From positions 17,856,001 through 17,920,000 of the forward strand of contig CM114271.1 in assembly GCA_050084515.1 (NCBI GenBank): DNA of 64,000 nt, read 5' to 3'. Numbering within the stretch: position 1 is the stretch's first letter; each line of letters starts with the position of its first letter. A model generated the notes under the pieces. That model worked only from the letters and a program-made list of their open reading frames with translations. It was not told the origin of the DNA and ran no database searches. The DNA is from Blasia pusilla (lineage: Eukaryota). The position numbers were made by a program, and so were the translations under genes. This document shows, in pieces, positions 1 to 64,000 of the stretch.

Positions 1-599
1 GGTTTTGAAAATGAACCAAATGCATCTGGATAAGTTATGGAAACTAACTTTAGACCTTAACGCATGACTCATATATTGAGTCCTAGTTTGAGACTCATTT
101 GAGGTCTATTGGGCGATGGGGACCGCCCTGCACGCTAGCGCTGTTTTAGACCCCTAGACGATCAAGGAAGTTTGTCCTAAGTCTTGAATGACTTGTGTAT
201 GTTGGGGAGTGAGCGATTAGGTGGGTATCTGACCCCGTCTAGATTTAGTGAGCTTGAAGGATGGCTCAAGACTAAGACTTGGGAGACACAAGGCTAGTTG
301 ACCCAAATTATGGCTAATATGAGTGCGTTTGAATGCAAATCAATAAGGAAAGCCAACCTACTTAATGCAAGCGTCCGCGATACACAAGATTGGCATTCAA
401 GGTAGTAGGTGCATGACATCCATGGACTTCTATCAAGAGATGGTAACTACTATAGTTGGCATGATGCATTGTTCTATGTATTAAGGAGCAATAGGAGGAG
501 ATCTAGTTAAGTTGACTTTAAATAATTAAATAGCCCATTATTGTTGGTATTGAGTGGTTTGCATAATAACAATCAAGACCTATATTGGAGAGTCCTACC

Positions 600-1870
600 A
601 TAGTGACTATGGAAACTTAGGAGTTTGAAATTGGGCTTAGGTTACCACAAGGAGAGTAGAGTTAAATACTTCAATTCTTGAAGAATCATATGAACTATTT
701 TAAATTAAGTTTGCAAGATTTTGGTATATTGAAGGGCGCAGAGGTCCGCCTCGAGATGTTTGATGATATGTTGATCTTTAGACAACCCTAAATATACAAT
801 GTGATGAAGAGGGCTCTAATTTAAAATAAGAGCCAAAACTTGGTTAAGAGAAGATTAGTAGAGATGTTTCATGGAGAGTATGCATTTGGTATAATCATGC
901 CCCCCAATAAAGGATTTGCATGGAATCTTGAAGGATATGCAAATGTGTGGAGACTACCAACCCATCAGTTGATAGATAAAGTTCAATCTATATACGATGC
1001 CCAATCCTAATTAGATCTTCGATGCAATTGGGCATGCAAAGATATTGAGTTCCTTAGACCTTTGACCCAAATACCATCAATTGCCTATTAAAGTGGAGGA
1101 CAAGCAAAAGATGATAATTTTGGGTATTAATTCTCATGGGAAAGACTGCTCGTCAAAGTGGTGGTTCTTACCATTTGGGTTGAAGAACAAAGAATTATGG
1201 ATAAAATCATGGAAGGTTTGGATTTTACTAAGCGTTGCAATGACTAAACCCTAAAATCCCATCATTGCAACGCTTAGTGATATGGTTTAGGAGCATGGGC
1301 AACATCTTGCATATGTATTTTGACATTACAATTACATGTGTTGAAGTTACACCCATACAAGTGTTAGTTCTTATATGACTAGATCAAGTACACCTTGTAT
1401 GAGGGTGAGTACTCAACTATAGTGAGGATTACTGCATATTCTAAATGTTAGTTGTTTGGTAATCCCTCTATTCTTACCTTTGATTATCAACCGTTAAAGT
1501 AGTTGATGGAATCCAACAAGATTGTTATGAGGGCTCTATTTTTGTAGGAGTATGATTTCCAAGTGATTCATTGACCTAAGAGATTGATTGGGAAGTATAT
1601 GGGTTGAGTTGTAACTTAAGCGCGAGTCAATGAGATGTCAAAAGAGCTTGTTGGTATGATGAGCATGACGAGGGGATGATGACCACATAGAATGCACCAA
1701 CTAATTTGGGTTTGTTCACCATGGAGGGTCAAATTGCGTCAACTACCATAATAAGATCAAGTGGAGTGTCCTTAGATCTTGATGTCGGTGATGAGGTGGC
1801 AAAAATATCCAAAAGGATTAGATAATCTCGGAGCACCTACACACTATCCACATAGCATAACAAAGGCCAC
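600..1870 (+). mobile_element. Degenerate Ty3/gypsy pol remnant (reverse transcriptase, part of RNase H, run-in to integrase)
   Basis: Manual translation through stops gives RT motifs MCGDYQPI, IFDAIGHAKILSSLDL, YHQLPI and WFLPFGLKN (about 940-1190). RNase H-type DYQPLK*LMES and QEYDF-like segments lie at about 1480-1570. Many stops and frameshifts. Confidence 0.85.
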
Positions 1871-3877
1871 ATTGAAGTGGTGGTCTACAAATTGTCTGAG
1901 CGGATTGAGCTCAACAGGAGTGGGGAGCATGCTGCCACCATAGGATTCTTACGAGTGTCAATGGGTCCATATGTGTCAATAGCCCCACATGTGCCCCAAT
2001 GTGCACCAATACCACGATAGTGGGTTGGTTTACCTAGAGAGCAGAGTGGATATATCATAAGCTCATGAGGCAACGACCCGTACATACATACGTTGGTGAG
2101 CATGAACCAAGTTGGGTGTATTGAACGCGTGATGGATTCGATCGGCAGAGGGATTGCAGACATCATGATGGAGTGTAGAGAGCACCTGATATGGCTAAGG
2201 AAACACCTTGTATGATTATTGTCATCGATATAATTACACTAGAGATAGGAGGATCGTGCTTTATCAAGCGACACATCGAGAGGTAGGCCAAGAGCTTGGG
2301 GGTGGTTGAGTTGGTGGAGATCAAGGAGTATATGGCCATAAGATAGAGCTCCACCACATGTTAGAGGGGATAGCGGGTGTGCACTTGAGGCAACACTCCT
2401 TACCTACATTGATTCGGTGGAGCAGAAGATTGCTGCCATGATGATGACATATATATCTAGGGATGGACATGCAATTGAACCTTCAACGCTTCACCCTTAG
2501 CCTCCACGTCATATCAAGATACAAGGGAGGGCTTCGTTAGTATGGAATTTATGTGTAGTGCAATATAGTTAGAGAACGCGATTGTGGTGATTTGAAGCTC
2601 TACGAGAGCGATTGATTGAGTCACAAGAAGGTTGAGTCGAGGTAGACCTAGACCTGCGGTCCGATGGGCGACATGCAAACATTCCCAATCATTCACATTA
2701 CTATAGGCACTATTTACACATACAATTGATGGTTCCTAGAAGACTAGTAATACCCACAAATGGGGTAAGTGTTTTAACATCACAAGGAGTTGGAGAGGTG
2801 ACTCCTGTTCCAACTTAGGTGGAGTAAGTGTCAAGTGTATCAAGCTCTAGTATTTTCTGCCATGGACTTTACAATCATATGAGTTGGACCGATGGAGGTG
2901 TTCCACTTGGTTGCTCTATTGTGTGAGCATAAAGAGGTTATTGCTACTCATATGGAGATAGTAGTTGAGGAGGTGGCGAACATACATACCCTCGGAGTAG
3001 GTGCTTGCGATGTCCCTCACTAATTCTTGGCAAGATGCAATTGTTAGGTTGGGTTCAGGGTCTAGGATACTAGACCTGTAATAGAGCAAGCCATGATGAG
3101 ACAAGATGTGGTATTCTTGGACAACAAGAGTAGGATGTTGCACTTAGTTAGTCCTACATGTACATTGTACCACTTGTAGCACATCCTACTTGATTTAGGA
3201 GTGCAACCCTTGATATTAGGAAAGATGGCATGTTTGGCATTGGGGTAATGAAAAGGAAATATTGATTTGTGTCCCTTCCAGTTACAAACTTCCATTGGGG
3301 GTGTGCCATCCACGTAGTTCATGACTCAACTATAACTATATAGTTAGTTATCAAACTCCACTAGAGCATTCTTAAAAGCTTCACATAGTGTAATGATGCA
3401 CAATTGTGCAACAAAAACACCAATAGATTCCTATGATGTGTTGGTATGAAGCATTGTATTATATCCCCTTGGTTTCATCCTCGATTATAGGTCGGAGATG
3501 AATTCTTACCAATTATTGATAATGTGATAGTTGGGTGAGTTATCTATCTATGCAATTTGTAGGTTGTGATGGTGGTGATGGTCCATGAGGTGATATCGTG
3601 ACCACCTTAGCACCACTCATGGATAGTATAGTTTTCCAGGATAGTTATTGGAGAGGAATGCCCATGCGGAGGATATCCTAGTAGCGGATAGTCCCATGGA
3701 GAGACATGTTATGATGGATGTCTCTTCACATGGTACAGGGACCTCTTTACTATAGTGGGATATAAGCATTGAGCTATAGAGAAGTATAGATGAGCTTATG
3801 AGCCAAGCGTGGAGTTGGACCTTTATTTGGAGTAGATAGAGTCACGTGACAATCGTACTCTCGGAGTGGAGATGAAC

Positions 3878-4060
3878 TTGACACTCTTGGATACCACACA
3901 TGTTATGTGGTAGTTTACAAAGGAGGGTGTGAGAGTGTTAAATTTCTTTGGATGGATCAACATTGGGTGAATTGGGGTGTTATTAATTGACATACAAATG
4001 AATGAGTACATCTATGTTGAGAGAGTTGAGATTGCAGAATATGCCTCATTTCGCCATATG
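3878..4060 (+). pseudogene. C5 DNA methyltransferase (DNMT3-like) N-terminal fragment, motifs I-II, inside the gypsy polyprotein
   Basis: A single frame reads LTLLDTTHVMW*FTKEGVRVLNFFGWINIG*IGVLLIDIQMNEYIYVERVEIAEYASFRHM. It is colinear with ORF 46697-46999 and has two in-frame stops. Confidence 0.75.
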
Positions 4061-4102
4061 GATGGAACGACTGAATCAAGCATGGCAATGGTACATGTGG
4101 GC

Positions 4103-4249
4103 TTGAGATGCATATTTTGTGGATCTATGAGGGATGTAGCAACCATGTTGGTATGTGATAATTGCTCTAGAGGGTGATATTCTTTGTGGTTGATTTCCCC
4201 TCTTGATATGGTTCCCACCGGAAGATGATTTTGTTCAAGTTATGTATAA
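4103..4249 (+). pseudogene. Degenerate PHD finger at the polyprotein C-terminus
   Basis: LRCIFCGSMRDVATMLVCDNCSRG*YSLWLISPLDMVPTGR*FCSSY fits the PHD pattern CxxC...MLxCDxCxxxWH...PL..VP.G.W.C, with both Trp codons mutated to TGA. It lies just before the PPT. Confidence 0.8.
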
Positions 4250-5377
4250 GGTAGTAGCGTATGTCATGTTGATATGATGTGTGCAGCTTGCGCAAGTAAG
4301 GGGGGGGGGGGTTGCATGGTCTTGGTATGCATGCATGAGTGTATTTTTTTATGAGTATGGATCTACCCATGTGTTGGGAAGATCGATGTTGTGTGTTATG
4401 TCGATGTGATCGGCAATATGGATTTTGTAGCAACGTGTATGAAAAATTTCACATCTTGATTAGCTGAGAAGTAGAGTTCTACCGTGTCAATGACATGTAT
4501 TTTTTTGAATCAACAGGTTGTTCGAGTATAACTTCATCCTAAGATGTTGGATGAGGTGGCGACAACTCTTGCTGCATCGCGTCATAAAGTTTTTCCTCTA
4601 CTTCATCCAGCTTAATCTCAACTTTGAGCTTTGCAAGCGGACGACATAGATTAAGTCTCAAAGACTCAACCAATTGCGCCACCCATAAGTAGTTGAGAAG
4701 CCGTAGATCATTAATTCGAATCGAGTCTCCCCAAGTGCATAGCATCTCCCTAAGAAACCTCTTCCCTAAGCCTTGACCAATCTTCCTAAGTCGCTCATCT
4801 AAGCCATAACGCGTCAGTTAATTCCTCAAGGTGAGGGAGATCGAGGGCTTTCACAAGCCATCTTTCTCATGTTGAGCCTTTTAAGCACTTGGAATTTTAG
4901 GGTTTGCTAGAAATTTAGATGCTAGAGTTTGAGTTCACTTATGGTGGAGGATGGATATAGCTCGATATGCTAATATAGATTCATGTGTGTATTTAGTTGT
5001 GTAGATATGCCACTTTTACTCTATAGGGAGATAGTCTGTGTATACCTCCTACGTCACCTCCGACGTTTTAGGGTCGGAAACCCCTAACTTATAAGTCAAA
5101 ATTTTTTCTCATCCCCCTTACTTACTTTCAATCCGCAAGTTTCAAAAAATTATGACCTTATATTTTGTTTAAGTAAAAAAAAGTCCTTAATTTGTTTAGG
5201 GGCTTGAAAGTAAAATTAAGTACCCCTTTGCGTAGCGGTCTTGTGTTATTGCACTTGATAACAACTCTCAACGATACCCAAGCCACTGCCAAACACGGTA
5301 ATGAAATGTGAGGTGGATTTATTTGCATGTTTCCATTGACTAAATGTTTAGTGCAACTTCCACTTTCTCCATTACTT

Positions 5378-5464
5378 TGGCACCTATGACGGAGAGGAAT
5401 TGAACCTCAGTATGAGCAGGATCCTCATAAGGCCACACTATTATCCCCTAAGCTATCCTCTCCC
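5378..5464 (-). other. tRNA-derived (SINE-head-like) sequence or tRNA pseudogene
   Basis: The reverse strand has an A-box-like TAGCTTAGGGG and a B-box GGTTCAATTCC inside a GAGG/CCTC T-stem. The acceptor and anticodon stems pair poorly. Confidence 0.45.
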
Positions 5465-6329
5465 AAAACTAGCCTATCATAATCTTAGAAAATGACTTCA
5501 CACTACAACTTGCACATCATTTGCATTGGCAAAAGATGACATTATGTGAATAAAATCAAAGACCACTTGTAAATCATCGTTATCTAATTTATATATTCTA
5601 TATGTAAGACTTGACTTCATGGACAAACTCACATTTGAAATAACTATTTCAATATCAATATATTGACCATCACATGCATCATATGTGAACAAGGTGTTGC
5701 TCTTACCCAAGCGCCAATACCAATTGCACAATATTTGAAAAACAGTACATATCTGCCCATCTTTTGGAACATGCCGGTCCAAAAGATCAATAGGAGATCT
5801 ACGTCTATCCCATTGACTACCATATTTATGTTTGATGAATAGAATGCGACCTAACCAAACCTCCTTTGTTGGGACTACTCTGTTTTCATCCAACTCTTTT
5901 TGTTTCCTCTTCTTTGACTTACTGGATCTAGTAGAAGGGCCAACTTGTGTAGTAAACTCAAACAAAATAGCCATATCACTTCCAATGTCAACATAACAAG
6001 TTGCGCAATCTGGATTCCTTGGTTCTTTTACCCTACCTATAGTGTAATATGTTTTCTATGACACCCGTGTTAGCCTATCTTTAGAAATGAAAGGATTGCA
6101 TGCCCAATCATTCACCCAAGTGGACTTGTAGTATATTCTTCCCTCAAATGTCATAGTAGGCACAACTTGACGAGGAACTCCATCTGTGCACTCGTGCAGA
6201 AATGAACTGAATACATGCCTTACCTCGTGTCCCAATGTTTCTATCTCTATGGATGGATTGTTATCTACATCCTTAGCCAAGTCCTCACCAATCACGTTAG
6301 ACTCAACAAGGGTCGGTGCATCACTTTCC

Positions 6330-6641
6330 TACTCAAGATTGAGTTACGGTCAAGCTCATGAGATATCTGAACTGCTACATTTGGTACTCACACGAATTAC
6401 AGAAGTTTAATTTTGGTTAGTTAGTTAAACGCGATTATCTTAACTAGGGTTAGTGAATCACGATCAGTCTAACTCAAGACTATCGTTAAGGTTAGGGTTA
6501 GAGTTGCTTGTACATACCCTATATAATTGAGAAGGGGATTGGCCTCCACTCATTCTCTCATTGCCAATTTTGGTCTCCATGATGGTGTGTGAGTGTGAGA
6601 GTCGTTTCCCATCAGTTATGCTTCTTTAGCAATATTCCACA
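6330..6641 (+). repeat. Copia 5' LTR
   Basis: Direct repeat of 10259-10570; ends ...ttccaca immediately before the PBS. Confidence 0.95.
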
Positions 6642-9600
6642 TGGTATTAGAGCAATAGGAGAACATTAATTGAAATTCTTGGTGTTTGAGGAGAGAAGAG
6701 AGGCAAGAGAAGGCACAATTTTAATTTGGAGGAGGAAATTTTGTTCAGAGCTAAATGGGCGCAGATTTCAGGTGGAGCTTTGACGGTGATACAACTTTGG
6801 AGGTATTTTTTAGGGCTTTCTCGATCGATTTAGCCATCTAGATCTGTAGCAACTATAATAATGCCAAAGGCTTATTATAGTCTTATAGTAGAGTTTGTTG
6901 AGAGCTTTCCAACATACCCAAAATCGCTCGATTCTGACATTTTGAGCTCATGTAATGGCAATTTCAGTGTAGGAAAGTGCAATTAGTGAAGAAAAATTGT
7001 GCAGTTTGTTCTCTACAGGCCAATTTTGACTAGTTCTTTCATACAATTGATCAATTTTGGCAAATTTCACATGAATTTTTGTGTAAGAGTGGTCTATGCT
7101 TCAATTGGAGCAGTAAAAAGTTTGAAATTGCATTTTCTGTGATTGAAATCGTTCATCATGGAATATTCCTCAACAACAATTATAGGCGAGAAGCTAGATA
7201 AGCAGAATTACAATGTCTGGTAGTTTCGCATGAAACAATTTCTCATCGGTCAATAACTATGGGAGTTTGTCATAAGTGATGAGACCAAGCCAAAAGGTGA
7301 CTCAACAAACTTGAATGTTCGCGTATGGAACAAATCCGCAAGGCAAGTAATCCACGACATTTCAATAACAATTAGTTCGCCAATGATAAGTCATATTCAA
7401 GATGTAGATACTCGGAAGGATACCTGGGATGCATTGGAAAAGCTATTCCAGACATCTACAAAGGCCATAAAGCTTCAATTGAAACAACAATTGAACGAAG
7501 TGAGGAAAATATCGTAGAGCATCAACGATTATATTGTGAGTATCAGACATATTGTTGATGAGTTGAATAGCATTGGAGTGACAGTAGAAGATGATGATCT
7601 GATTTTTTTCACTATTCAAGGCCTTTTAAAAGATTACAATTCCTTTGAGACCTCTATCTCTATAAGATAGAAGTATCCAACCTTTCAAGAGTAAGTCCCA
7701 TTATTAATCAATGAAGAAATGCGCCTAGTAGGCAGCGGTAGTTCGTCTAGTCTGCAACAGAGTTTGCTATTTGCAGGTTATCGATCAAATAGAGGTAGGG
7801 ATCGTGGCAAAAGTTTTCGTGGTCGTGGTAGATATCAAGCATATGGAGGAAGAGACACTCAATATAACGTCATTCAATTAGTCAACCAGTACCAGACACA
7901 ATCACAAGGTAGTGATGGTGGAAACAACAACAGAGGGTACCTTGTTCTTGCAAAGTTTTGCTTCAAGAAGAAGGCAGATATGAGAACATGAGCCTTATAG
8001 CAAAAAAAATATGTGAAGCAACAACACCAAGAACAGTACCAAGAACAAAAATATTCACAAACAGAGCATCTTTTGGTCATGACTCATCATATGGGAGCAA
8101 TGGTCAAGAAACACTCCAGAGCAAATTGGTACATTAACATAAGATTGATAAAACTCCATTCAAAATCTTCATAGGAAGTAAACCTGATTTTTCCTTCTTG
8201 AAAGTATTTAGCTATATTTGTTATGCTCATGTTCCTTCTGAGAGACGTAAAAAATTAGACCCCAAGTCTGGAAGATGTATCTTCATTGGCTATGCTCATG
8301 GAACTAAGGGGTATAAGTGCTACATTCCATCCTCTAGGCAACTTATTATTAGTCGCGATATTGTTTTTTATGAGTTAGAATCATGGTATGCTCCATCTGA
8401 GCCTATTCCACATCTAAACTCGTGCGTTGAGGGAAAGAATATGACTGTAAACCAACAGACATTGTCTTCAACTTCCCCAAGTACTAGTGCAGGATTATGA
8501 GAGATCATAGATTCATCAATTAAATCTGTGAGTCCATGGACGGGAAGAGTACGTATTCAGTCTAATGACACTAGTCAGAGCTCGAGTCAAGTGTCATAGG
8601 CATCTACCTGTGAACAATAACTTTGTAGATCAAGTAGAGTTACACATCTAATCTGTAGATTCATAAATGAAGGTTTCCTTGCGACACATCATGCATATAT
8701 GATGACTACCCTTCAAGAACACGAGCCAAGTTGTTTTGAAGAAGCTGTAAGTTCAAGTAAAGTCGAACGGATTGAAGCTATGGAGGAAGAGCTTCCTGCA
8801 TTAAGACATCAACAGGCATGAGAGTTGGTTGATATACCTTTCGGTAAGGAAGTTATTGGTTGCAAATGGGTTTATAAAATCAAACACAATCAAGATGATA
8901 TAATTTACAAATACAAAGGGAGATTGGTGGCTAAAGGCTACGCACAACAATATGACATCGATCATGAGAAAATATTTGGCCCTGTTGCAAAGATGATGAC
9001 TACGAGAACAATGGTTGCAGTTATAGTTGCAATAAGTAAGAAGTGGAGATTACATCACATGGAAATCAAGAATGCCTTCTTGAATGGAGATCTATACGAG
9101 GAGGTATATATGACTCAATCACTTTCCATTCTGCGTATGGAGATTGAAGAAAGCTCTATACAAGCTCAAACAAGCTCCAAGAGCTTGGTATGGCAAGATT
9201 ACATACGTCCTACAAGAGTTGGATTTTAGGGTATGTGATTCTGACTCCTTGTTATATATCTTGAGAGGACAAGATCAAACAGTTCTCATAGTGTTGTATG
9301 TTGACAATCTCTTGATTATTGGGAGTACTGAAGAAATGATACATTAAGTCAAGGTTAAGTTACAAGCAGAATTTGATATGAAGGACTTGGGAAAACTCAA
9401 GTACTTCCTTGGTATTGAGTTTATCAAGGTTGGAGAGAGCATGTGGTTACTACAACGACAATATGCTCTTCATATGCTTTCAAAATATGGTATGACGGCT
9501 TGTAAGCCAATCTCTACACCGTTGGACCAGAGTGTGAAGCTAAAAGTGGATGAAGGAGAGTTGCTTATAGATTCTAATATGTATAGGCGCATGGTTGGAA

Positions 9601-10258
9601 GTTTGATCTATCTAACTATAACCAGACCAAATTTGAGCTATGTTGTTGGCATAATGAGCCAGTTTATGCAAACACCTTGAAAACCTCACCTTGATGTTGT
9701 GAGAAGGATTATGCGGTATGTGAAATTATTTATTCAATTCGGGCTTCAATTTGAAATTTCTCCGAGTTTTCAATTACAAGGATTCACAAATGCTGATTGG
9801 GTAGGAAGCGTATATGATCGACACTTCACATCTGGTTATTCATTTACTTTGGGAAGCGTAGCTATAAGTTGAGCTTCAAAGAAGCAACCTACAATTTCTT
9901 TATCTTCAACAGAGGTTGAGTACAAAGGAGCAACCAATGCAGCATGTGAAGCGGTGTGGCTTCATCGATTACTTATTGAGATTGGTATTAGTAACTTAGG
10001 ACCTAGTGTAATATATGCAGACAATATTAGTAGCATCAAGCTTGATAATAATCTTGTGTTTCATGCTCGTAGAAAGCATGTTGAGGTGCACTATCATTTT
10101 ATCAGAGAGAAAGTGCTTGCAGGAGAAATTGATCTTGTGTGTATATGTACAGATCAGCAAATTGTTGACATCTTTACAAAGATATCTTTACCGGTGAAGT
10201 TTGAGATATTTATAAATGATTTAGGCGTTAGAGATATCGATATGAGCTTGAGGAGGAG

Positions 10259-10570
10259 TATTGAAGATTATGTTATAGTCAAGCTCATGAGACACCTGAA
10301 CTGCTACATTTGGTACTCACACGAAGTAGGGAAGCTTAATCTTGGTTAGTCAGTTAAACGCGATTATCTTAACTAGGATTAGTTAATCACAGTCAGTCTA
10401 ACTCAAGACTATGGTTAAGATTAGGGTTAGGGTTGCTAGTACATACCCTATATAATTGAGAAGCGGACCAGCCTTCACTCATTCTCTCATTGCAAATTTC
10501 GTTCTCCGTGGTGGTATCCGAGTGTGAGAGTCGTTTCCCACCAATTATGCTTCTTGAGCAATTTTCCACA
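10259..10570 (+). repeat. Copia 3' LTR
   Basis: Follows the PPT, ends ...ttccaca and is followed by the TSD tttcc. Confidence 0.95.
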
Positions 10571-13500
10571 TTTCCCACGGAGCAAGACTATTGAAATTCC
10601 TTAGCATTGGGTCATCAACTTCTATTTCATCAACACTAGACTCCTCGGATGGACGAGGGCTTGTTTTTGGTTTGTGCTCTATAAAATCCTCACAGTCATC
10701 ACATGCAACTGCCTCATTCATAACAGTAGAATCAAGTCATGTCTTTGCCTCCACATCTTGTGGATGCAACCACCATCCCCTCCGACCTGTAGGCAAGGAG
10801 GACCTTGGAGACATATTCAACCTGCTCAATATTCATTTTGCTTCATCCACATCTTCTTTAAGAGCATAAACTACTAGCTCATTAGTCTAAATTAAGGAAT
10901 AGTCAAACATGTTATGAGCATCTTCTCCTATATCTAACGGATGGAGAGTTCTCCACATATGATCTTGCTTTGGGTCAGACCGGCCAATCTTTAATCCTTC
11001 TGGTCCAAATTCCAAGTCATCCAGTCTATTCAATCCCACTGCACTATCCAACAAAGACCCAACATCATAGTTCCGTTCATGGCCACTCATTCCACCTACC
11101 TTGCAGGAGAAGATCTCACAACAATCAGATCCTAGGAGGTGAAATGGAACTTGCAAGTATGGATACTTGCTAGGGAAAGCACACATTAATAAGATAATAA
11201 TTAAAATGGCAAGACATGTTGATATCATGGAAAGCTTGCACTAATATCATGTTCTTCTCTGTGACAAATCCTACACTCCATATCACAGAATGATCACCGT
11301 GTCTCAATGAAAGTCTCAAACATATTCTGCAAACAAGCTTGCACTCTCTTTGAAGCAATTTGTTGAGGCCCAGTCCAATTATGTCTGTCAGTCCTATTCA
11401 CATTATCCCACGTCAAGCCATGCTCATGAATTTTGTAGTGGTTATAGATATTTGTTTCATATGACAAAGATGCATGTTGATCTCCAAACACAAGTAGTTG
11501 AGCATCTATCCAATGGATTACTTCTTTTCTTTCCATTGTGAGGTGTATTATGGTCTCCAAAGCCATCTAGATCACCATTAGGAGGAGCAGAGACAGAATA
11601 CTGCCATCCTTCCCATCCCATACTATACGTAGGTATGGTAGAGTTAACACCCCTAAAATCCTCCATCATTGGTTTTCTACGCTGAGCATCCCCATCAGTG
11701 GCATGTCCTAATAAAGGCCCGAAATCAGCTCGACAATACTCATCCCACATTGCTTTCAACAACACCCAATGTTGTTTCACCCACTCTGCAGTGAACTTGT
11801 TACACGTCGCAGTAACACAGATGGCTAATTTAGGCATAGACTCATGAAGAGGATTTACAATGATAACTCTAACATACATGTCTTTACAGTAACCTTGGAA
11901 AGTACTTACAATCTTGTGATAGCCCTTATCACCCTCCCCGACCAGTAATTCCATTCCATATAAACATTGGTGTGCCTCTTTGGGCCCGCAAAACCCAAAT
12001 CAGGATATCATACTTGGTCTCCCATCTGTCAAACATGACTATGAAATGTTAGTTGTATTCACAATGAACAAATCATTCAGTGCCTTATAATTTGTAATAT
12101 TGAATTTCAAACACCTCTCATTAATCCTTGTTTCATCCTTTGCAAATATTATAGGAAGATCTCCTTCAATTCCAAGAGTATACTTTGATGCAGAAAAAAT
12201 TGTGCCAACCTCCATGAATATCTCTTTGCGTAATCCAGCTCTGAAGGATGGTAACTTGGCATTGTATCGCTTCAATATTTTTAGACTTAGACGACCTAGG
12301 TTCTTTTGAAAGCAGTGGGCCACTTGCCTACCACCAAATTATAGCATTGCTTGGGCTGTGGCTCTAGTTCTCTTACTGTACCTAAAACCCTTTGAAGCCC
12401 TGGTTAGATTTCTAGCAACATTTGTCATGAAATCCCATAATCCTTCTTTGCCACCAAATGGTCTTGTCCTATGCCCATTCACTATATTCCTAAGGAGCAA
12501 TCTCAGATCGTGCCTATCTATAGCTACTCCTAATATTTCCTTCAGCTTCCTCCGCCTAGTACCTAAGGCAGCTACTTTGGCAACATACTATGATAGAAGC
12601 CATCATTGTTTTTTGAATTTGGAAGTCAAATTTGCAACGTGATTTTTGTGCTATGTCTTGATAAGACAATCCAAACATATCCCCCCATTGGTATCTTTGG
12701 CTCCTCTTGGCACTAAAGCTTCTGCTTTCTTGTGCACCCGACCACGAAAATCATCCAACCGCTTTACTAACGCACATTTACTACATGTTAGGTTAAAAAA
12801 CCAACCACCATTATAAGACAATCTTTCACATTGCTTGTGTCTAAAACAACCCTGAATAGTCACTAGAAACTCTAGAGTATGATTGTAAACATGTGCACAA
12901 CTGGTTAACTCACAATCCCACAAGGCCCCTCCCTCTTGATCATCTAGAACAACCTTGACATCCATTCAATCTCCTCTCCATTTAACCATTTCATCCTACA
13001 ATCCCCAACAAAGCGAACTTAGTCTTGGATCTATTGCTAGATCTGACCCACGTTTCCCAATACAGCTCCCAACGTTGGACTTATCTCTTGTGAAGAACTT
13101 CAGGATTGATCCCTATGACAGGTGTTGGTCCCTGATATCTGCTTTCCTTGGTTTGGCTCTCTTTCGAGACCTTAATGCAATCTCCACAGAAGCCTCCTTG
13201 ACCTCAGAAGCATCTAAGTGATCTCGGCTAACCAAGTGTTGTCTCAAATTATGATCCAAATTCAATTTTTTTGGGCACATGTCTAAATGCAACTTTTCAC
13301 AAACCCTACATCTGACCTTAAACATGTATGACATATTGAGGATCTATGGGAGATGGTGCCACAAAGAACATCTCCTTGTCACCCCCAACATCCTCATTCA
13401 GTTGGGAGATAATCTCTAGTCCTCTAGAGATGGCCTCACCATGATCAAATTGAGGTTTGTGAACAGCATCACTAGGTTCCATCACTGATGCAGGCAATGT

Positions 13501-25292: not shown

Positions 25293-27782
25293 TAGGTTCT
25301 CATGAGAATGGCTTGTGACAAAACTTATTGTTGTAGGAGTAAGGTGAACTTTTCCGCATGGCTACTATCAAAACACAATCTACAAAGATACGAGGGCTCA
25401 ATTTTAAACTTCTCATGGCACAACCAGTTACTTCACAAGTGTCAAAGAGTGTCATGATTTTACTTTCACACAAGAATACAAAATTGTCGCTCCATATCAT
25501 TTGCTCTTTCTTCAAAAGCCATAATTAAGTTGGTTTGTATACGTAATTAAGATGTAGCTTTTTGTTATTTAGTAATTTTTTTGTGTTCAATCATTTCATT
25601 TAAATAATATTTAATGGAACGGTATTTTTTTGGTTTTTTCATCATAACTTTGAACACGGGGATTGTGGAGTGTGGCAATTGTGTGTTGGTCTGCGTGAGT
25701 GAGGAAGACAAAATTGCTCCACCTTGGAGACTGTGTTGGGTTGTGATTTTGAGGATGGAGGATTGAATATTTTAACAAAGTCAATAATCTTTGAGTGCTA
25801 GGTGGAGATGGAGAGCCTTTTATAACATCTGGTTGTTGATGGTTCTCAAGAGTTTCCTATTCATATAACTAGTAAGGTACCGTGAGAATGTTTGAAAATA
25901 AAAGAGTGTTTGAGGAGCTTTTGTTAGTGAAGAGATTAATGATGATGCACACAATTTTTTTTCTGATTGTCAATAACACGTGAAACCTTTTTTTCTTATC
26001 CAATTACCATATGTCGGTAGGGCCTTAAAAAAGCATGTCAATAATAGTTTTTTAAATTATGTTTAAATTTTCAAATTTAAGTATAATCTCCACTTTTTTA
26101 AATCTTAAAAGAGTTAGAAAATTTCACGTTTAAATAACACCCATCTCCCCTAAATAATTTCACTCCTCTATAAAAGCTCAAACAATAACTATTCTTCCCC
26201 TTCCATTTTTCCCACCAATATAACATTCACTAACCAAAATCTTAACTAATCTTAATTAACGAAATGATTTTCCTTTTCCATTCAAATTCATTTTACTTTC
26301 CCAAAATATGACATGTGAATCAATACAATGATCCAAATGATCATGCTATTTATTTCAAATTTTAAATATGATTTCTATTTTCTGAAATCTTAGAAGAGTA
26401 ATAACATTTCACTATATTTAGTAATTACAATCCTCCATTCAGATCCCAATACAATAAGTAATTTTATCTTTCCATAAAATTTAAACAAAATCTACTCCTC
26501 TATTAAATTTTTATTTCCTTTTTCCCATCAAATATGAATTGAGGTAAAAATTGTAAAAATTTGGTTATTTATCATATTAATTATATTTTATTAATATTTA
26601 TAATCACCCATTATAATATTAGTTTAATTACTAATTGATTAATATATATTCCATTCAAGTCCCTATTCGTTTCCTTTATTCTCTTTCTACCCATATAAGG
26701 GGGCTAAGGCGTCAAAATTCAAGAGTGTTGCCTATTTTGTCTTATTGTCTTGCTATCTTGTCGTATTATACATATGTGGTCGCCAATTATTATATAGATT
26801 AAGCTACGTGTGGTGATTATGAATGTACAATGTTTTGAGGTAGTCGCTCTGAGTTGACCATGCTGCGATGCCTAATGTCGCAACGCGCCACTATTTCCTC
26901 ATTGTGCTACTTGTGGTCGCGTCCCATTGTCTTACTTTCGGAATTGCACCAACTTTAAAGAGTTGAGAGTGTTCAACAGTGAGAGAGATGTTGCATCACA
27001 TTATCGAGTGTTGTGTCATTATATTTGGAATTGTACCATGCCATTGTTGTAGCATCCTACCCGTTGTGACTGCACCATAGAGGAAGAGTTAGTTATGTAA
27101 GCACCAATGAGTAAGACTTGCTAACCACAAGAGAGGTTTAGATATTCCAAATGGGTGTCAACTTGCAACTACTAAGAAGCAACGTCGACAATGAGTTTCG
27201 GGTTATATTGTTCCTTATCTTGTATTTATTAGAGGTTTTCGGATGTTGGGAATGTTGGGGTATCAATCCTCATAGGAAGGATTTCTTGTACCGTTGATGA
27301 TTCTTATCATTAGGATTAAAGAATACCCCAAAAGAGTCTCAAAGAATAATAGATAGGATATTAGCAAGTTTGGATTTTGCTTTATGTTATATTGATAACA
27401 ATGTAATCTTATGTGCCAAGGTTAAGGAGCATGAGTGACATCTTGTGGAGATGCTTTGATGATTGTTGTTACATGAGCTAAAATAACATCCAAGAAAGTG
27501 TAGGTTCGTATTTGAATAGATTAAGATGATGGAGGTTATACAATATAGCCAAGTTGATGTAGTATTTAGTAAACAAAGGTAGGGGCTATTTCACTCATTT
27601 CACGCCCGCCAAATGTAAATTGAGTTTATGCATTCATGGGGTTGGAATTTTTTTATCAATGGAATGCCAAGGGATTGAGTACAATTTTGAAGCCTCTTAC
27701 CTTGTTGAAAAAAGTGGACCATGAGTGACAATGGGGGAATGAGTAGGAGACAAGATTTCAACTACTCAATGACCGATGGACC

Positions 27783-28425
27783 TGTCACGTCTTTTAGGAT
27801 AGATTGGTGAGATCTAATAAAGCGCCTTCATGAGTAGTGGAGGACACGCCCAGTAGGTCGAGGGTGACCTGCTGAGGCCCTTGGAAACCTGAGATAGCAG
27901 GTTTCCCCCTCGTTTCACCTCATTTGGAGCCATATTGAGGAACTTACTATTTTAGGTAAGTACCATTTTGAGTATATGATCGAATTATTATTTTTGGTAA
28001 GTGGCCCTTGACCTTTCTACATCAGGTCAAGAGCCAAGGAGGTGACTTGGGAGAATAGGTTACCATGGAGAGAGCTTGGGAGAGGGGAGGGGTATACCTC
28101 AAGGAGAGAGAGCTTGAGAGCTCATTCTCTCTTTGTTGAACCTCTTGGCATGAGGCGGCGGAGCTATGGTACCTTGTCTTGTGAGTGTAACCCAAGCCTT
28201 TCATTAGGAGAGTGGGTTTGGTTTGACATGAGAGAGAGTGCATACCTTTGAGAGCTATGGTGTGAGATGGTGGAGAGAGAGATTAGATCTTACTTTAATT
28301 GGAGATATTTTGGTACTTCTTGTCTCGTTGTTTGGATGCCATGAGTTAGCATGGGATCATGCGTGTTTGTGTGTGTGTTCGGAGACAGCGATGTATGTTG
28401 TGTAGCGATGTGTATGCGCACGACA
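27783..28425 (+). repeat. Solo LTR (TGTCACG...CACGACA) inserted in the RT-RNase H linker of the older gypsy
   Basis: TG...CA ends. The host reading frame (DRxT|SPPILRRPIRG) resumes across it, with an imperfect duplication gacc/tacc. Homologous to 29260-29672, 46406-46670 and 51430-51937. Confidence 0.85.
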
Positions 28426-29259
28426 TACCTCTCCACCTATCTTGAGGAGACCAATTAGGGGATTTCCCTTCCAATTGCACATTAATATATTGGATCATGT
28501 TGAGATTTTAAGCAATGCTCATCCAATAGGAGGATGAGGATAAAGAGTTTGTAGTGCCTTACGCTAGCCATTTGAACAATGTTCTAGAGACAAAATGCAA
28601 CTCATATGAAGGAGAATACTTGGTTGCAATATGGGCCATCATGCATTTTAGGTGTTATTTGTTTGGTCAAAACTTTATTCTCATCACCAATCATCAACCA
28701 TTGAATAGGTTGATGGAATTTGAAAGCTTACGTGAAAGCTTGCCGTGTGGGCTTTCTTGTTGTACAAGTATAATTTCTGAGTGAAATAGCGATTGGGAGA
28801 CTCTACCAAGGTGGACAAGTTTGTGTCCGTAGATATGTTCATGTTAGTGGACTTACATCTGTCTTATAGAAGAACTTGTCCATGTGGCCATCTTCCCTTT
28901 CTTTCTCATCCCACCCACTTGCCTTCGTGATCCACAGTTTTTCATTTCTTCCTCCTTCCACCTTCACTCTCTTTCCACTTATTGCCCCGTCCATCCTTGC
29001 CTTGCCTTGCCTTCCACCATGAACTATAAGTGTGGACCTCATCTTTTGCAATCCATGTCTACATGTGAACATGTCTAAGCTTGTCCGTCTATGTCTGTTC
29101 TAGCTAAGGACTGACTTGTCCATTTTGGTGCAACCATGAATGTGGAGATGGGTTAAGTTCTAACCAATGCCCAAGTTAGTGGATACAATTAGAGCTTGTT
29201 GGGATGATGAGAGTGATGGAAAGATGGTGCATGGATGACATGACTTTGATTATTTGTAG

Positions 29260-29672
29260 AGAGCCATATTACACATACAAGGCAAGGATTATAGCTCTGC
29301 CGCCTCATGCCAAGAAGTTCAACAAAGAGAGAATGAGCTCTCAAACTCCCTCTCTTTGGGTATACCCCCTTCCCTCTCCCAAGCTCTCTCCACAGTAATT
29401 TATGTTCGTAGGTCATCTCGTTGGCTCTTGGCCTAATGTAAGAGGTTAAGGGTCACTTCCCAAAATGGAAAATCAACTATACTCAAAACAAAAACTTATT
29501 GGAAATAGTATGTTTTTCTATATGGTTCTAAATGAGCCGAAACGAAGGGGAAACCTGCACTCTCAAGTCACCAACGGCCTCAGCAAGTCATCCTGGACCA
29601 CGAGAGGTTATCCTCCAGTATCCTCAAAGGCGCTCTATCATATCTTGTCCATCTATCCTAAAACACGTGACA
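29260..29672 (-). repeat. Partial LTR of the TGTCACG family, inverted
   Basis: The reverse complement begins tgtcacgtgttttaggatagat and aligns with 27783-28190. Confidence 0.85.
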
Positions 29673-30744
29673 TACGTGATCAATTACATGTTGAGATGTC
29701 ATGAATGGATATGGTATTTTGTATTTATGTCTTTGTATTTTGTGATAATGATGTATGTTTTATAGCGATATGTATGTCACGACAAAGGAGATTAGAAATA
29801 TTTCGGTGACTACTCGCCCGCATGATTGAATGTTTTGTGTGTTCGATTAATGACATTGATGTATATTTTGTTACGTTATCTATACGCCGAATAATTATTA
29901 TGTCTTTTGTAGTAGAAGGGGGAATATCTATACGGCACTTTAGGCTAATAAGTCAAGCATAACCTTCTACGGAGTTGGATAATCATGAAGGAAGGTCTTC
30001 ACATTATATTAATTAGTTTACGATTCGTGCAATGCACAGGAGTGAAAGAACTAATGATGCTGCACACAAATTCAAAACATTTTTTCGCTCGACTCATGCA
30101 AATAAAAAAACACTCACCAATCATAATATAAATCATGTTTCTAAATATATGACTAGAGAAAAAATAAATTCCGGCCAAAAGGCGCGGTATGGGAGGACTT
30201 TTCTCCCGGCAGCAATGAAAAGGGACCCGCCAGCGGCCGGGAACCAACCGGGAGTCCGAACCGGCGAGCGGGAAAGTCGATCTGCTGGGTAGCGTTACTC
30301 GCAGCCCCGGATCTATCCGATACCGACCCATGGTTAAATTCCCCGAACCGTGGTTAGAACCGCGGGTTCGGTGACTGGGAAACCCTAGGAAGGAGGAAGG
30401 AGAACGAACGAACGAACGAGGGAAAGGAGCAGATCAGAGCAGAGGGAAAGGAGGAAAGGTCGACGAGAGGAGCAGGAGGTGTTCGCGTGGGAGAATCGGT
30501 GCGCCAGCGCTGTAGGTGTGGGTGTGGGTGTGGGTAAATTGGACTCGGGGGAGCAATCGAAGCGGACAGAGTGCAGGTGCAGGTGTGGGCTTTTCTGCGT
30601 CCGTATCGCCGGTCCAGATTTGTGGAAGTGCAGGAGGAGTGAGGGTTTTACTGTCGTTGCTGCTGCTTCTGGTGTTGTTGTTGTTGTCGTCGTCGTCGTA
30701 GGAAGTGGGAGTTGGAGGGGCTGTGGCTGGAAGGTTTGGTAGAG

Positions 30745-32118
30745 ATGTCGCTTGAGAATCCTCAGCACCCGACTCCTTTTCCAACCCCGACGTCGCCTAG
30801 GACGAAGCGTTCTCTTCCGAAAGCGGCGCCTGCGCCTCCATCTGCTCCATCAACGTCCTACCTGGCGACCAGCGAGACGTTAGCGCAGGCGGTAGAAATC
30901 CAGGAGCAAAAGCCAGAGGAAGCAATTGCTATTTTGAGGGGAATTCTTCATGATCCTACCTCCACTGCTGAAGCATTGCGTGTGAAAGAACAATCGATCG
31001 CGACGCTGTCGGACTTGCTGTCTCAGCAGAAGAAAGGTGAGGAGCTTCGTGGTCTGCTGACGGATCTCCGGCCCTTCTTCTCATTCATTCCGAAAGCAAA
31101 AACAGCGAAAATTGTCAGAGGGATCATCGATGCCGTGGCCAAAATCCCCGGTACGTCCGATCTTCAGATCTCTCTGTGCAGGGAAATGGTGGAGTGGACG
31201 AGGGCTGAGAAGAGGACGTTTTTGAGGCAGAGAGTAGAGGCACGGCTTGCGTCGCTGCTCATGGAGAGCAAGGAGTACTCGGAAGCCCTCTCTTTGTTGA
31301 CCAATTTAGTCAGAGAGGTGCGAAGGCTAGATGACAAATTGCTGCTGGTGGATATTGACCTGTTGGAAAGTAAGCTTCACTTTTCTCTGAGAAACCTACC
31401 AAAGGCTAAAGCAGCTCTTACGGCAGCTCGAACTGCTGCAAATGCCATTTACGTCCCACCGGCGCAGCAGGGAACGATCGACCTCCAGAGTGGAATACTT
31501 CACGCAGAGGAAAAGGATTACAAGACCGCTTTCAGCTACTTCTTTGAGGCCTTTGAAGCCTTCAATGCCTTGGACGACCCTCGTGCAGTTTTTAGTCTGA
31601 AGTACATGCTTCTTTGCAAGATTATGACTAATTCGGCCGAGGATGTCGGTGGACTCATTTCTTCCAAAGCTGGCTTGAAATATACTGGAGTGGAGCTTGA
31701 CGCCATGAAAGCTGTAGCAGAGGCCTATGGGAAGCGGTCTTTGAAAGATTTCGAGGAGGCTCTTCATACTTACAGAGAGCAATTAGAAGAGGATCCAATT
31801 GTGCACCGTCATCTGTCAGCTCTTTACGATACCCTTCTTGAGCAGAATTTATGTCGTCTTATCGAGCCATTTTCTCGGGTTGAGATCTCGCATATCTCAG
31901 AACTGATCGGACTTCCAATCGACGCCGTGGAGAAGAAGCTGTCTCAAATGATTTTGGACAAGAAATTTGCTGGAACTCTGGATCAAGGAGCAGGATGTCT
32001 TATCATATTTGACGATGTGAAGCCGGATGGAATTTATCCTGCAACCCTAGACACCATCAGTAACATCAGCAAGGTAGTGGATAGTTTGTACTTGAAATCA
32101 GCTAAAATCATGGCATAG
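30745..32118 (+). CDS. RPN6: 26S proteasome non-ATPase regulatory subunit RPN6/PSMD11 (PCI domain), single coding exon
   Basis: Intact ORF with hallmark segments IPKAKTAKIVR, EKRTFLRQR, DDKLLLVDIDLLESK, ARTAANAIY, DYKTAFSYFFEAFE, LLEQNLCRLIEPFS and KLSQMILDKKFAGTLDQG. First ATG at 30745. Confidence 0.97.
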   Translation: MSLENPQHPTPFPTPTSPRTKRSLPKAAPAPPSAPSTSYLATSETLAQAVEIQEQKPEEAIAILRGILHDPTSTAEALRVKEQSIATLSDLLSQQKKGEELRGLLTDLRPFFSFIPKAKTAKIVRGIIDAVAKIPGTSDLQISLCREMVEWTRAEKRTFLRQRVEARLASLLMESKEYSEALSLLTNLVREVRRLDDKLLLVDIDLLESKLHFSLRNLPKAKAALTAARTAANAIYVPPAQQGTIDLQSGILHAEEKDYKTAFSYFFEAFEAFNALDDPRAVFSLKYMLLCKIMTNSAEDVGGLISSKAGLKYTGVELDAMKAVAEAYGKRSLKDFEEALHTYREQLEEDPIVHRHLSALYDTLLEQNLCRLIEPFSRVEISHISELIGLPIDAVEKKLSQMILDKKFAGTLDQGAGCLIIFDDVKPDGIYPATLDTISNISKVVDSLYLKSAKIMA

Positions 32119-51937: not shown

Positions 51938-52169
51938 GTGCTCTACACCACAAATTGAGTCTGACTTTCTCTTCTATTGAGAATCAACGTGCATCTCCTT
52001 ACGATTTAAAGTTGAATATACACTATAAGCTCTGATGAAATCTGCAATCAATTGTGCTTCATCCAAACAACCATATTTATGATTCGGATACACATTGGTA
52101 TGACAGCAAGAGAAAGTATACACGAGGATTTCCAAAATGTGTGATCTCCTTATTGATCACTCATAGTCC

Positions 52170-62000: not shown

Positions 62001-64000
62001 CAAAGGCGTGAGGTAATATGCATGGCTTTTGTTGAGTCAATTTTTTTCTTATTTCTCTTACGAATATTTTAGGTACTTTATTTACGTTTTAACTTCTATA
62101 TTTGTTGCTTGTAATAGAGAATTGGTATTCCGACCCTTCCATTGGATGTTCATATTATTAATCTTGCGTTATTGGAGGTCCATTACCATCTTCAAGATCA
62201 TGGTAAAAGTATGGCGGACTTCCCTGACATGCCTCAACCAAATATCCAAACTCGTGATTTATCTATTTCGCGTCTAGAAGAAGAAGAGCTCTCCTACGAT
62301 CATGATATTCTTTGTGAACGTGTGAGAGTAGGAGAGATGTCTTTAAATGATGGACAACGCGCGATTTGGGAAGTTGTTTGTAATGCTTTTCGCGATATCT
62401 TATAGGATGCGCCACCTTCTGTAAGTGGATATTATATATAGTATATTTTATTATTAATTTCTTAAACTTTTTATTTATTTAAGTTTTCTTTTAAAGTGCT
62501 TTTCTGTGACGAAAAATATGGATTTTTCAGGCAAAACTTTTCTTTATCGATGGTCCTGGCGGAATAGGAAATTTTTTTTTGTACAACCTTCTTCTTGCAA
62601 TGGTACGGAGCGAGGGTCATATAGCTCTTGCAGTTGCATCTTCGGGGATTGCCGCTTTATTATTGGATGGAGGTCGTACTGCTCATTCTCGATTCAAGAT
62701 TCCTATCCAAGTACATGAAAGTTCCACTTGCAAGTAAGTCTAGATTTAAGATTTATTTTCCTTTTATGGCATGCATATTATTGTTTTATTTTTTGATTAT
62801 CCTTCATAAATGTTCCTCATATATTGTTTGTTATTGATTTTCCAGCCTATCGGTCAATAGTCATATGGCCCGCCTTATACAAAAGGCGAAGTTGATCGTG
62901 TGGGATGAAGCTCCTATGACGAATCACGCATTTGAGGTCGTTAATCGTACTTTCCAAGATATCATGGGTTTGATGGATCTCGATTACGAGATTTGCCTTT
63001 TGGGGAAAATCATTTTATTTGGTGGTGACTTCCGACAACTTCTTCCATTGTTTAAATCGGAGATCGTGCCGCTGATTGTGCGTGCAACACTTAGAGATCT
63101 CCTATTTGGTTTGACGTGAGATTATTGAAACTCACTACCAACATGAGAGTCAATACTATACAAGGTATTAAAGAATAAACCTAATATTTCACCTTTTTCA
63201 TTTCATGTGGTTTTTGTTTATTTTTAATATTTACTAATTTCTTCATTTTATATTTATTATCAGGATATGCACGAGAAGAGCAAGAAACCTTTGCAAAGTG
63301 GTTATTAGAGGTAGGAGAGGGTCGTGTACCGTTACATTTGGACCTTGGAGAGGATTTTATACAAGTTCCGGATGCGATAATTGTTAAAACCACAAGGATC
63401 AATGATTTCATTGACATTGTTTATGGACACGATGTTCATAAGTGGAGTGATATTGATTTCTTGAGGGGTACATCCATTTTGTCAACTAAGAATACTACTG
63501 TGGATATTATAAACGGAGAAATCATGTCTCGATTTCCAGGAGAGGTAATATTCATATTCTTGAATATCATTATTCTATTTTGATTGTTCTACTGCTACAT
63601 TTTTCTATGATCTCTCTTATTTTAATGATTTATTTTGTTTTTGCAGGAGCATACCTTCTTGAGTGCTGATTTTGTTTCCGACGATGAGATGAGACTTGTT
63701 TATCCAACAGAATTTCTGAATACATGTTTACCATCTGGATTGCCACCTCATTGTTTGACTTTGAAGATTGGAGCTCCGATAATGCTATTACGGAATATGA
63801 ATGGAGCAAAGGGACAAGCAAACGGGACTCGGCTGGTGATAGCTGGCTTTAGTCGACATCTTATAGATACAACAATTATCACGGGAAAAAACATTGGAGC
63901 TCGAGTTTTCATTCCACGCATTCCATTGATTGCTTATGATTCCGGCCTACCTTTTGATTTACGACGATTTCAATTTCCTATCCGTCCTGCTTTTGCAATG
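59080..64000 (+). pseudogene. Helitron Rep/PIF1 helicase, intron-containing, disrupted
   Basis: Motifs RNARAYNSALQLAS, PPQFAQIYIHD, ILPSSFIGGPRHM, GKPDYFLTMTCNPKWPEI, VEFQKRGLPHVH, MIHGPCG, VVPYNP, IVWDEAPM, GGDFRQLLP and QFPIRPAFAM. AT-rich GT-AG introns; premature stops (e.g. TGA 59850-59852) and frameshifts. Confidence 0.95.

Follow-up and report, generated by a model that had tools for sequence, protein, structure and literature searches.

The window analysed here is a stretch of 64,000 nucleotides (nt) of Blasia pusilla DNA (contig CM114271.1 of assembly GCA_050084515.1). From position 612 to approximately 5035 of its forward strand, it carries what is very probably a dead, scrambled copy (hereafter copy 1) of a Ty3/Gypsy retrotransposon family of the 'Gypsy-DNMT3' kind. 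In copy 1, the beginning of a DNA methyltransferase (DNMT) runs directly into a PHD finger. Intact relatives encode both DNMT and PHD, and their direct join in the window is an accident in a dead copy: the join itself has no function and, being debris, no significance. Elements of this kind have been described before, and copy 1 is a dead example of them; the family shows a consistent DNMT3-plus-PHD architecture. Intact relatives encode Gag, an aspartic protease (PR), a DNMT3-like methyltransferase, reverse transcriptase (RT), RNase H (RH), a DDE integrase (IN) and a terminal PHD finger in one frame.

The DNMT-to-PHD frame and its intact relatives

Frame 2 of positions 3848–4261 reads through a DNMT3-like N-terminus (...RVLNFFGWINIG.IGVLL...YIYVERVEIAEYASFRH) and then, without a change of frame, into MDGTTESSMAMVHVGLRC and a cysteine-rich pattern. 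An earlier interpretation made from the letters of the window (the sequence-only reading) had described one frame running from the DNMT N-terminus into a PHD finger after the protease linker, and that description is accurate, with PR and its linker (2835–3815) lying in frame 3. The frame is not open: it contains 14 stops in 3503–4261, and five in the 138 codons of 3848–4261. On the DNMT side, the relative P0007 (P numbers denote related proteins) matches with its residues 863–924 on 3875–4060 (tblastn, 40 per cent identity), and a 90-nt direct repeat links 3879–3968 to 46698–46787, where a second, better-kept copy of the family (copy 2) reads IRVLDLFGGINIG. The DNMT segment (3875–4057, forward strand) retains motif I only (VLNFFGWINIG). 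Motifs IV (PCQ) and VI (ENV) and all later ones are absent from copy 1; motif I is all that the family copies of the window keep.

On the PHD side, tblastn places residues 988–1064 of P0045 on 4025–4237 (E-value 2.7e-10) and residues 545–606 of the Marchantia protein P0178, which cover the integrase tail and the PHD finger, on 4055–4240 (48 per cent identity, E-value 1.8e-12). A phmmer search of 3848–4261 against 1.84 billion representative sequences returned 87 proteins with E-values of at most 1e-3 (best, 2.1e-10), made up of DNMT N-terminal fragments, integrase-tail-plus-PHD proteins and ordinary multi-PHD proteins; the integrase-tail/PHD proteins of the family were found with an E-value of 1e-8. 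Checking the finger against the Pfam PHD profile (PF00628), as the sequence-only reading had proposed, gave a score below the cut-off (14.7 versus 24 bits; E-value 0.033; profile positions 1–22 of 47). In a residue alignment (A3), five of the eight zinc ligands of the C4HC3 pattern are kept in the window (C, C, C, C, Y, W, C, Y); the losses are the histidine to tyrosine, one cysteine to tryptophan and one cysteine to tyrosine. Two TGA codons stand inside the finger at conserved tryptophan positions, and a tail motif, ..H(L/M)(D/N)G.., precedes it. In the other 20 rows of the alignment the zinc ligands are invariant or nearly so. Because the Pfam score of the window is sub-threshold and ligands have been lost, the identity of the finger rests on homology to intact relatives. 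Judged by this homology, 4058–4249 (forward strand) is a true but non-working relic of an integrase C-terminal tail and PHD finger. With stops in the frame, the catalytic DNMT motifs gone and three PHD zinc ligands lost, nothing in copy 1 is functional.

The relatives supply the architecture that copy 1 has lost. The PR open reading frame of copy 2 (47279–48010, minus strand) finds 27 longer proteins with E-values of at most 1e-3, 16 of which carry the DNA methylase family PF00145; the named relatives come from Marchantia polymorpha, Calypogeia fissa and Sphagnum. P0009 has the order PR-DNMT-RT-RH, and P0135 (2318 amino acids [aa]), in which no PHD was detected, the order Gag(CCHC)-PR-DNMT-RT-RH-IN. 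The predicted protein P0166 runs for 1516 aa without interruption and contains DNA_methylase (residues 82–140), RVT_1, RNase H, Integrase_H2C2, rve and PHD (1470–1513). In P0009, P0135 and P0166, PF00145 thus lies within the same protein as RT, that is, within Pol. A scan of JGI metagenome contigs returned 80 related loci (L numbers), in 66 of which PR is followed by DNMT. The integrase is complete (matched to its last 20 residues) in 24 of those loci, and a PHD segment follows it in all 24; the Gypsy Pol order PR-RT-RH-IN with an rve (DDE) integrase is found in these 24 loci and in P0135, P0166 and P0121. The PHD of relatives exceeds the Pfam cut-off in all nine loci tested (29.9–42.6 bits), as it does in P0166 (33.7 bits) and P0178 (36.7 bits). 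The ancestral order Gag-PR-DNMT-RT-RH-IN-PHD, which the sequence-only reading had deduced from the window, is borne out by 25 of the 80 loci, which are colinear from PR and DNMT to PHD, and by the uninterrupted P0166. That reading would have fallen had DNMT and PHD never occurred together in one intact element; both are present in single intact frames of relatives.

Two relatives deserve separate mention. P0178 (Marchantia Mp_7g09570, 612 aa), annotated as 'PHD-type domain', consists of a C-terminal part of PR, an N-terminal part and a C-terminal piece of DNMT, a C-terminal part of the integrase and the PHD finger. This short form, comparable to the window relic, may stem from deletion within an element or from a gene model in which stops were spliced out. 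At locus L002 (321–6809), Gag-PR (321–3194), DNMT (3195–4511) and RT-RH-IN (4512–6809) all lie in one reading frame, which is broken by just two stop codons that exactly flank the DNMT segment. These flanking stops, seen at this one locus only, could be due to chance or to stop-codon read-through.

Codon-level comparison locates the join. The window tracks the DNMT of copy 2 through ..TCA TTT CGC CAT and, from (A)T ATG GAT GGA ACG.., it tracks the integrase tail of the loci L073, L029 and L013 (..AAT GTG GAT GGT ACA..). Because the codon match switches there, we place the join at 4055–4060 (forward strand), with a 2-nt overlap (AT), in agreement with the breakpoint near 4060 proposed earlier. 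In L029, DNMT codon 55 (at approximately 6010) and the NV of the integrase tail (at approximately 10013) are about 4.0 kb apart, and approximately 4 kb is accordingly missing from copy 1 relative to an intact relative. Contigs from two DNA sequencing runs of two studies span the junction (3928–4150 with one difference, and 3941–4138 with four differences); the junction is therefore genuine in the organism and not an assembly artefact. The depths of these contigs are like those of neighbouring low-copy contigs, although contig depth is a poor measure of copy number, and contig cover of 2800–5600 has gaps. The junction is an illegitimate join at the 2-nt overlap, which could be due to deletion or to template switching during reverse transcription, with the frame kept by chance; the chance of an in-frame join is one in three.

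Anatomy and origin of the scrambled copy

Copy 1 is made up of three segments of the same family, joined at no fewer than two junctions (1789–1877 and 4055–4060): RT, RH and the linker that follows; the C-terminal part of Gag, PR, its linker and the first approximately 55 codons of DNMT; and the integrase tail, PHD finger, polypurine tract and terminal repeats. All lie on the forward strand. The RT and RNase H relic (612–1577; RT 612–1391, RNase H 1386–1577) stands upstream of Gag, which is a non-canonical order. It was recognized by tblastn with P0154 (residues 64–203 on 901–1320, 46 per cent identity, E-value 1.2e-29; residues 365–430 on 1386–1571, 50 per cent identity) and P0118 (residues 963–1062 on 612–911). 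The post-RNase H linker, heading toward the integrase, follows at 1601–1789 (P0154 441–501, 40 per cent identity). Between the end of this first segment (612–1789) and the C-terminal part of Gag (from approximately 1877), there is a gap of at most approximately 90 nt and no terminal repeat. The Gag part (1877–2830) is decayed but colinear with PR. Local alignment of frame 2 of 1790–2835 with P0007 (residues 150–520) and P0011 gives scores of 54 and 57 (z of 5.3 and 5.2 in 200 shuffles); the best-aligned part is approximately 1877–1955 (P0007 223–249), and colinear matches further downstream are weaker (z of 2.0–2.2). PR and the PR-DNMT linker (2835–3815, with stops) match residues 524–841 of P0007 (tblastn, E-value 4e-34), and the active-site motif reads LLDLG, versus LLDSG in copy 2. 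No tblastn match to the integrase core was found anywhere in the 64-kb window, so that of the Ty3/Gypsy domains copy 1 retains relics of PR, RT and RH in scrambled order. Pfam searches of long stop-masked translations of 1–4400 found no family in any of the three frames, a failure that is due to decay and frameshifts. The 5' end of copy 1 lies outside the window or has been lost; the four relatives with resolved ends have, instead of identical direct long terminal repeats (LTRs) at both ends, the split arrangement described next.

At its 3' end, the PHD relic is followed by a purine/G run, AAGGGGGGGGGGGG (4298–4311), which resembles a polypurine tract and directly precedes the 3' repeat. The sequence-only reading had put the PHD finger just before such a tract, and the relatives agree: the G-run is positioned like the CTAGGGGGG tract that precedes repeat B in all four relatives with resolved ends (L026, L029, L030 and L056). 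These four, out of ten long loci, read A-internal-G-run-B-A-B with TG..CA ends, where repeat A is approximately 340 nt long (TGTCATGACC...TTTTCA) and repeat B approximately 113 nt (TTGTGGTAC...CGCACGACA). Immediately outside the first A and the last B, the flanks of these A...B-A-B loci differ, and all four loci combine DIRS-like split repeats with Gypsy domains. In the other six of the ten loci, terminal repeats were not found at the thresholds used. The window itself holds four copies of a 265–540-nt repeat R, starting TGTCACGTC. In copy 1, the G-run after the PHD finger is followed by TTGCATGG.., and we tentatively read the 3' flank as a short B-like repeat (approximately 4312–4420) and then an A-like repeat related to R, with the 3' terminal repeat region as a whole extending over approximately 4312–5035. 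With a transition-tolerant matrix, R (51938–51400, reverse strand) aligns with 4820–5009 at a z of 3.6 (3.4 for the copy R1), compared with 0.4 and 0.0 for two controls. Contig depth at 4774–4961 is very high in two runs. A second B repeat (B2) after the A-like repeat of copy 1 was not found (z of 2.4).

Several observations weigh against this reconstruction. The homology of the 3' flank to R is weak (z of 3.4–3.6), and a purine/pyrimidine-coded test of the flank against R is not significant (z of 0.6–0.7). Positions 1–611 of the window, the expected place of the C-terminal half of DNMT, gave no significant match in local alignments (z of at most 2.1 versus shuffles); a by-eye assignment of that half to 1–611 was dropped on the same grounds. 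The relatives are only 40–50 per cent identical in protein, and intact copies of the subfamily to which the window's copies belong were not seen. Copies 1 and 2 are only approximately 61 per cent identical in DNA. Among the 80 metagenome loci, L002 is the only one with long frames (at least 600 aa), and its 3' end is lacking.

How the segments came together can be read in more than one way. The sequence-only reading had proposed an internal deletion. The approximately 4-kb gap at 4055–4060 fits that proposal; the position of RT-RH upstream of Gag does not fit a single deletion in a canonical element. Two family copies may have contributed the DNMT side and the PHD side, respectively, and the scrambling reflects either two abutting truncated copies, the second of them internally deleted, or a Gag-to-DNMT fragment that replaced an integrase core, or two template switches. 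Under all three scenarios both sides belong to the same family. Alternatively, one canonical element may have suffered a single deletion from DNMT to the integrase tail, with the upstream RT-RH being part of a neighbouring, distinct copy that lost its 3' end; we hold this account to be possible but less likely than not. The 2-nt overlap at 4055–4060 is typical of a deletion, the Gag C-terminal part, PR and DNMT N-terminus are colinear and contiguous with the junction, and the domain order of the relatives fits. Such a history nevertheless needs a 5' truncation inside Gag exactly where another copy was 3'-truncated (at 1789), with at most approximately 90 nt between them, and neither repeat A nor a 5' leader is present between 1789 and Gag. 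It differs from our preferred explanation, a scrambled copy assembled from segments of one family, only in the number of events and of parental copies assumed.

The remaining explanations are all improbable, to different degrees. Green algae (Volvox, Tetrabaena, Pleodorina and others) commonly have integrase-PHD Gypsy proteins for which no DNMT is recorded, and the locus is demonstrably composite; the PHD finger and 3' end could in principle stem from another Gypsy family, one that lacks DNMT and simply adjoins the DNMT fragment here. We regard this origin as unlikely, given that the best match of 4055–4240 is P0178, whose N-terminal part is 71–87 per cent identical to the DNMT-bearing P0009, that the PHD finger is present in every relative with a complete integrase (24 of 24), and that R, the repeat to which the 3' flank bears a weak resemblance, also stands at the head of copy 2, a member of the DNMT family. 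Far less credible still is a selected, expressed fusion of DNMT and PHD, either domesticated or serving as the protein of a non-autonomous element. Frame is kept across the junction and the layout of the Marchantia gene model P0178 (PR, DNMT fragment, integrase tail and PHD) is comparable, but a fusion under selection is refuted by five in-frame stops in 138 codons, the loss of three of eight zinc ligands and a DNMT reduced to motif I, by the CpG observed/expected ratio of 0.42 and GC content of 41 per cent, both as in decayed repeats, and by a junction contig depth like that of low-copy neighbours (bearing in mind how poorly depth measures copy number). Least probable of all is a chance match of the cysteine pattern at 4109–4249 with no PHD relic behind it. 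The Pfam score alone would allow it; the tblastn E-values for P0178 and P0045 and the phmmer E-value for the family proteins refute it, and the residue alignment extends to the tail motif ahead of the finger.

Putative roles and comparison with known systems

All 25 solved-structure matches of the DNMT of Marchantia P0003 are to DNMT3A, 3B or 3C, and most bryophyte relatives retain motifs I (LDLFGGISTG), IV (GWPCQG) and VI (ILENV). By sequence, the solved fingers nearest to the family PHD are those of CHD4, DPF3/DPF2, KDM5A/B, PHF21A (BHC80), ATXR5, AIRE, BAZ2A and UHRF1. An AlphaFold2 model of the relative P0034 adopts the PHD fold, with a mean predicted local confidence (pLDDT) of 67.6 and block values of 78–89 over the finger; in Foldseek comparisons it superimposes on DPF2/3 with a root-mean-square deviation of 0.7–0.8 over 47–49 columns, and on BHC80, ATXR5 and BAZ2A with target TM-scores of 0.78–0.87; the UHRF1 finger is among those that it superimposes on as well. 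Many of the matched fingers were solved with unmodified histone H3 peptides, including ATXR5-H3 and BAZ2A. The matched fingers read H3 unmethylated at K4, as is partly evident from the titles of the structure entries. As modelled, the family PHD is similar to solved fingers with affinity for the unmodified tail of histone H3.

In a live member of the family, the integrase-borne PHD finger would probably tether integration to nucleosomes that lack K4 methylation on the H3 tail, and the DNMT3-like domain would probably methylate the element's own cDNA or its new insertion. Chromatin-targeted integration coupled to self-methylation, which the sequence-only reading had suggested for the window, is a putative property of the family. 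Two considerations count against pressing it further. The roles of PHD and DNMT in the live family are probable ones that we infer from the domains, and the polyprotein is probably cleaved, so that DNMT and PHD need not share one polypeptide. Indeed, physical coupling of the two is not implied, because RT, RH and IN separate them in a polyprotein that bears its own protease. That the DNMT3-like writer and the integrase-borne PHD of the unmodified-H3 type form a selected, functionally coupled module, a retroelement version of ADD-DNMT3 logic, strikes us as a rather doubtful proposition. On this view, the finger would guide insertion toward chromatin without H3K4 methylation, and the DNMT3 encoded by the element would go on to methylate the new copy, which would then blend into silent chromatin. 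The host enzymes DNMT3A and DNMT3B combine a catalytic domain of the DNMT3 type with an ADD domain, a PHD-like module that reads H3 unmethylated at K4. The likeness lies in a DNMT3-type domain accompanied by a PHD-like reader, and only DNMT3A, 3B and 3C are matched by the family DNMT among solved structures. In contrast to the host enzymes, the modules of the element are approximately 1300 residues apart and flank RT, RH and IN, and the reader is a single simple finger, with no ADD domain.

Gypsy elements of the green lineage pair writer and PHD finger repeatedly, and in two domain orders. Those of bryophytes read PR-DNMT-RT...IN-PHD; chlorophyte-like sequences (P0137, P0211, P0219, P0238 and the Haematococcus protein P0144) read RT-RH-DNMT-IN-PHD. 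The second architecture shares the integrase C-terminal PHD and a DNMT with the PCQ motif. It differs in that DNMT lies between RNase H and integrase, rather than between protease and RT, and in that this DNMT is only 33–40 per cent identical to the bryophyte type.

Klebsormidium nitens has a Gypsy-type element, KnitGypsy-Dnmt3, with a DNMT3-related domain in Pol (de Mendoza et al. 2018, PMC5890265). KnitGypsy-Dnmt3 is like the present family in having DNMT3 in Pol and a DIRS-type repeat arrangement together with Gypsy domains (PMC5890265), which here takes the form of A-internal-B-A-B repeats with an rve integrase. The hosts differ, being a charophyte there and, among named hosts here, liverworts and a moss, and the likeness is one to the published description, no K. 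nitens sequence being among the named hits. SymbioDIRS-Dnmt3 of dinoflagellates likewise has a DNMT3-type domain in Pol and A...B-A-B repeats, but it is a DIRS element with a tyrosine recombinase (PMC5890265); an rve (DDE) integrase and an aspartic protease characterize the present family. Consistent with this difference, P0135, P0166, P0137 and P0045 contain Pfam rve and Integrase_H2C2 and no Phage_integrase, which sets them apart from DIRS elements. The same paper proposes that retrotransposon DNMTs methylate the element's cDNA or new insertion (PMC5890265). The term PHD does not occur in its main text, though its Fig. 4c and supplements may bear on the point.

Chromatin readers are also known in other retrotransposons. 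The chromodomain at the integrase C-terminus of chromoviruses is held to direct integration into heterochromatin (Gao et al. 2008, cited in PMC6673714). In both cases a histone-tail reader is fused to the integrase C-terminus, a PHD finger here and a chromodomain there; Pfam finds no Chromo in P0045, P0166 or P0137, which have the C-terminal PHD instead. In the EpiLTRs of Cymbomonas and Euglena, a chromodomain is combined with a DAM adenine methyltransferase and a DNMT related to DNMT4 (10.64898/2026.05.21.726589). They resemble the present family as LTR retrotransposons with one or more DNA methyltransferases and a chromatin-binding domain, which here are DNMT3-like and PHD instead. The same 2026 preprint speaks of 'streptophytes (Gypsy-DNMT3)' (10.64898/2026.05.21.726589), and PHD fingers in retrotransposons are known in general (PMC8557442, PMC6673714). 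Our literature search, which covered searchable texts only, found none that pairs Gypsy-DNMT3 with PHD or places Gypsy-DNMT3 in bryophytes.

Liverwort and moss sequence is rich in elements of the Klebsormidium type, complete with split repeats, and this type is therefore a feature of land plants too. A terminal PHD of the unmodified-H3 type occurs in every relative with a complete integrase, a pairing that we did not find stated in the searchable texts. P0166 and the Marchantia models are natural frames in which to test whether a transposon chooses its chromatin and writes its own DNA methylation.

Other family copies and features of the window

Copy 2 (46406–51938, minus strand) belongs to the same family and is better preserved, though rearranged. 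On the minus strand it runs from repeat R (51938–51425) through Gag (49593–48100) to PR and its linker (47983–47012), followed by a DNMT N-terminal piece on the plus strand (46679–46990) and an inverted partial R (46406–46670). Its PR open reading frame (47279–48010) is 50 per cent identical to Marchantia proteins. Copy 2 is flanked by inverted copies of R, and its DNMT piece is inverted relative to Gag-PR; the two meet at 46990/47012, where P0009 coordinates 359 and 371–461 would adjoin. This layout cannot be obtained by simple inversion of a canonical element. We also considered whether copy 1 derives from a copy-2-like sequence mainly by C>T/G>A decay, and rejected this idea: in the PR region, G>A and C>T account for only 31 per cent of the differences, and the two copies are simply old and divergent.

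A third family fragment (27256–29672, plus strand) comprises a C-terminal part of RT (27256–27818), an A-B repeat unit (27782 to approximately 28425), RNase H (28418–28798) and an inverted R (29672–29269). The solo A-B unit (TGTCAC...GCGCACGACA), one of the four copies of R in the window, has a B-like end and is inserted between RT and RNase H; it is the equivalent, in a split-repeat element, of a solo LTR.

Among the relatives, the integrase-PHD proteins P0052 and P0095 extend approximately 330 residues beyond the PHD finger, in a glycine-rich region with SPW/IPP motifs. A by-eye likeness of this extension to a methyltransferase was discarded, as Pfam finds no such family and only a sub-threshold Tudor-like match in P0052.

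Elsewhere in the window, inspection by eye suggests Copia-type RT/RNase H at 8822–10349 (plus strand), between 308-nt direct repeats (6335–6642 and 10264–10571; 88 per cent identity), and Helitron-helicase-like frames at 59202–63583 (plus strand; approximately 59.2–63.6 kb). An uninterrupted frame of 491 aa at 30643–32118 (plus strand), by eye similar to a proteasome lid/PCI-domain subunit, has a GC content of 49.5 per cent and a CpG observed/expected ratio of 0.82, unlike the surrounding repeats.

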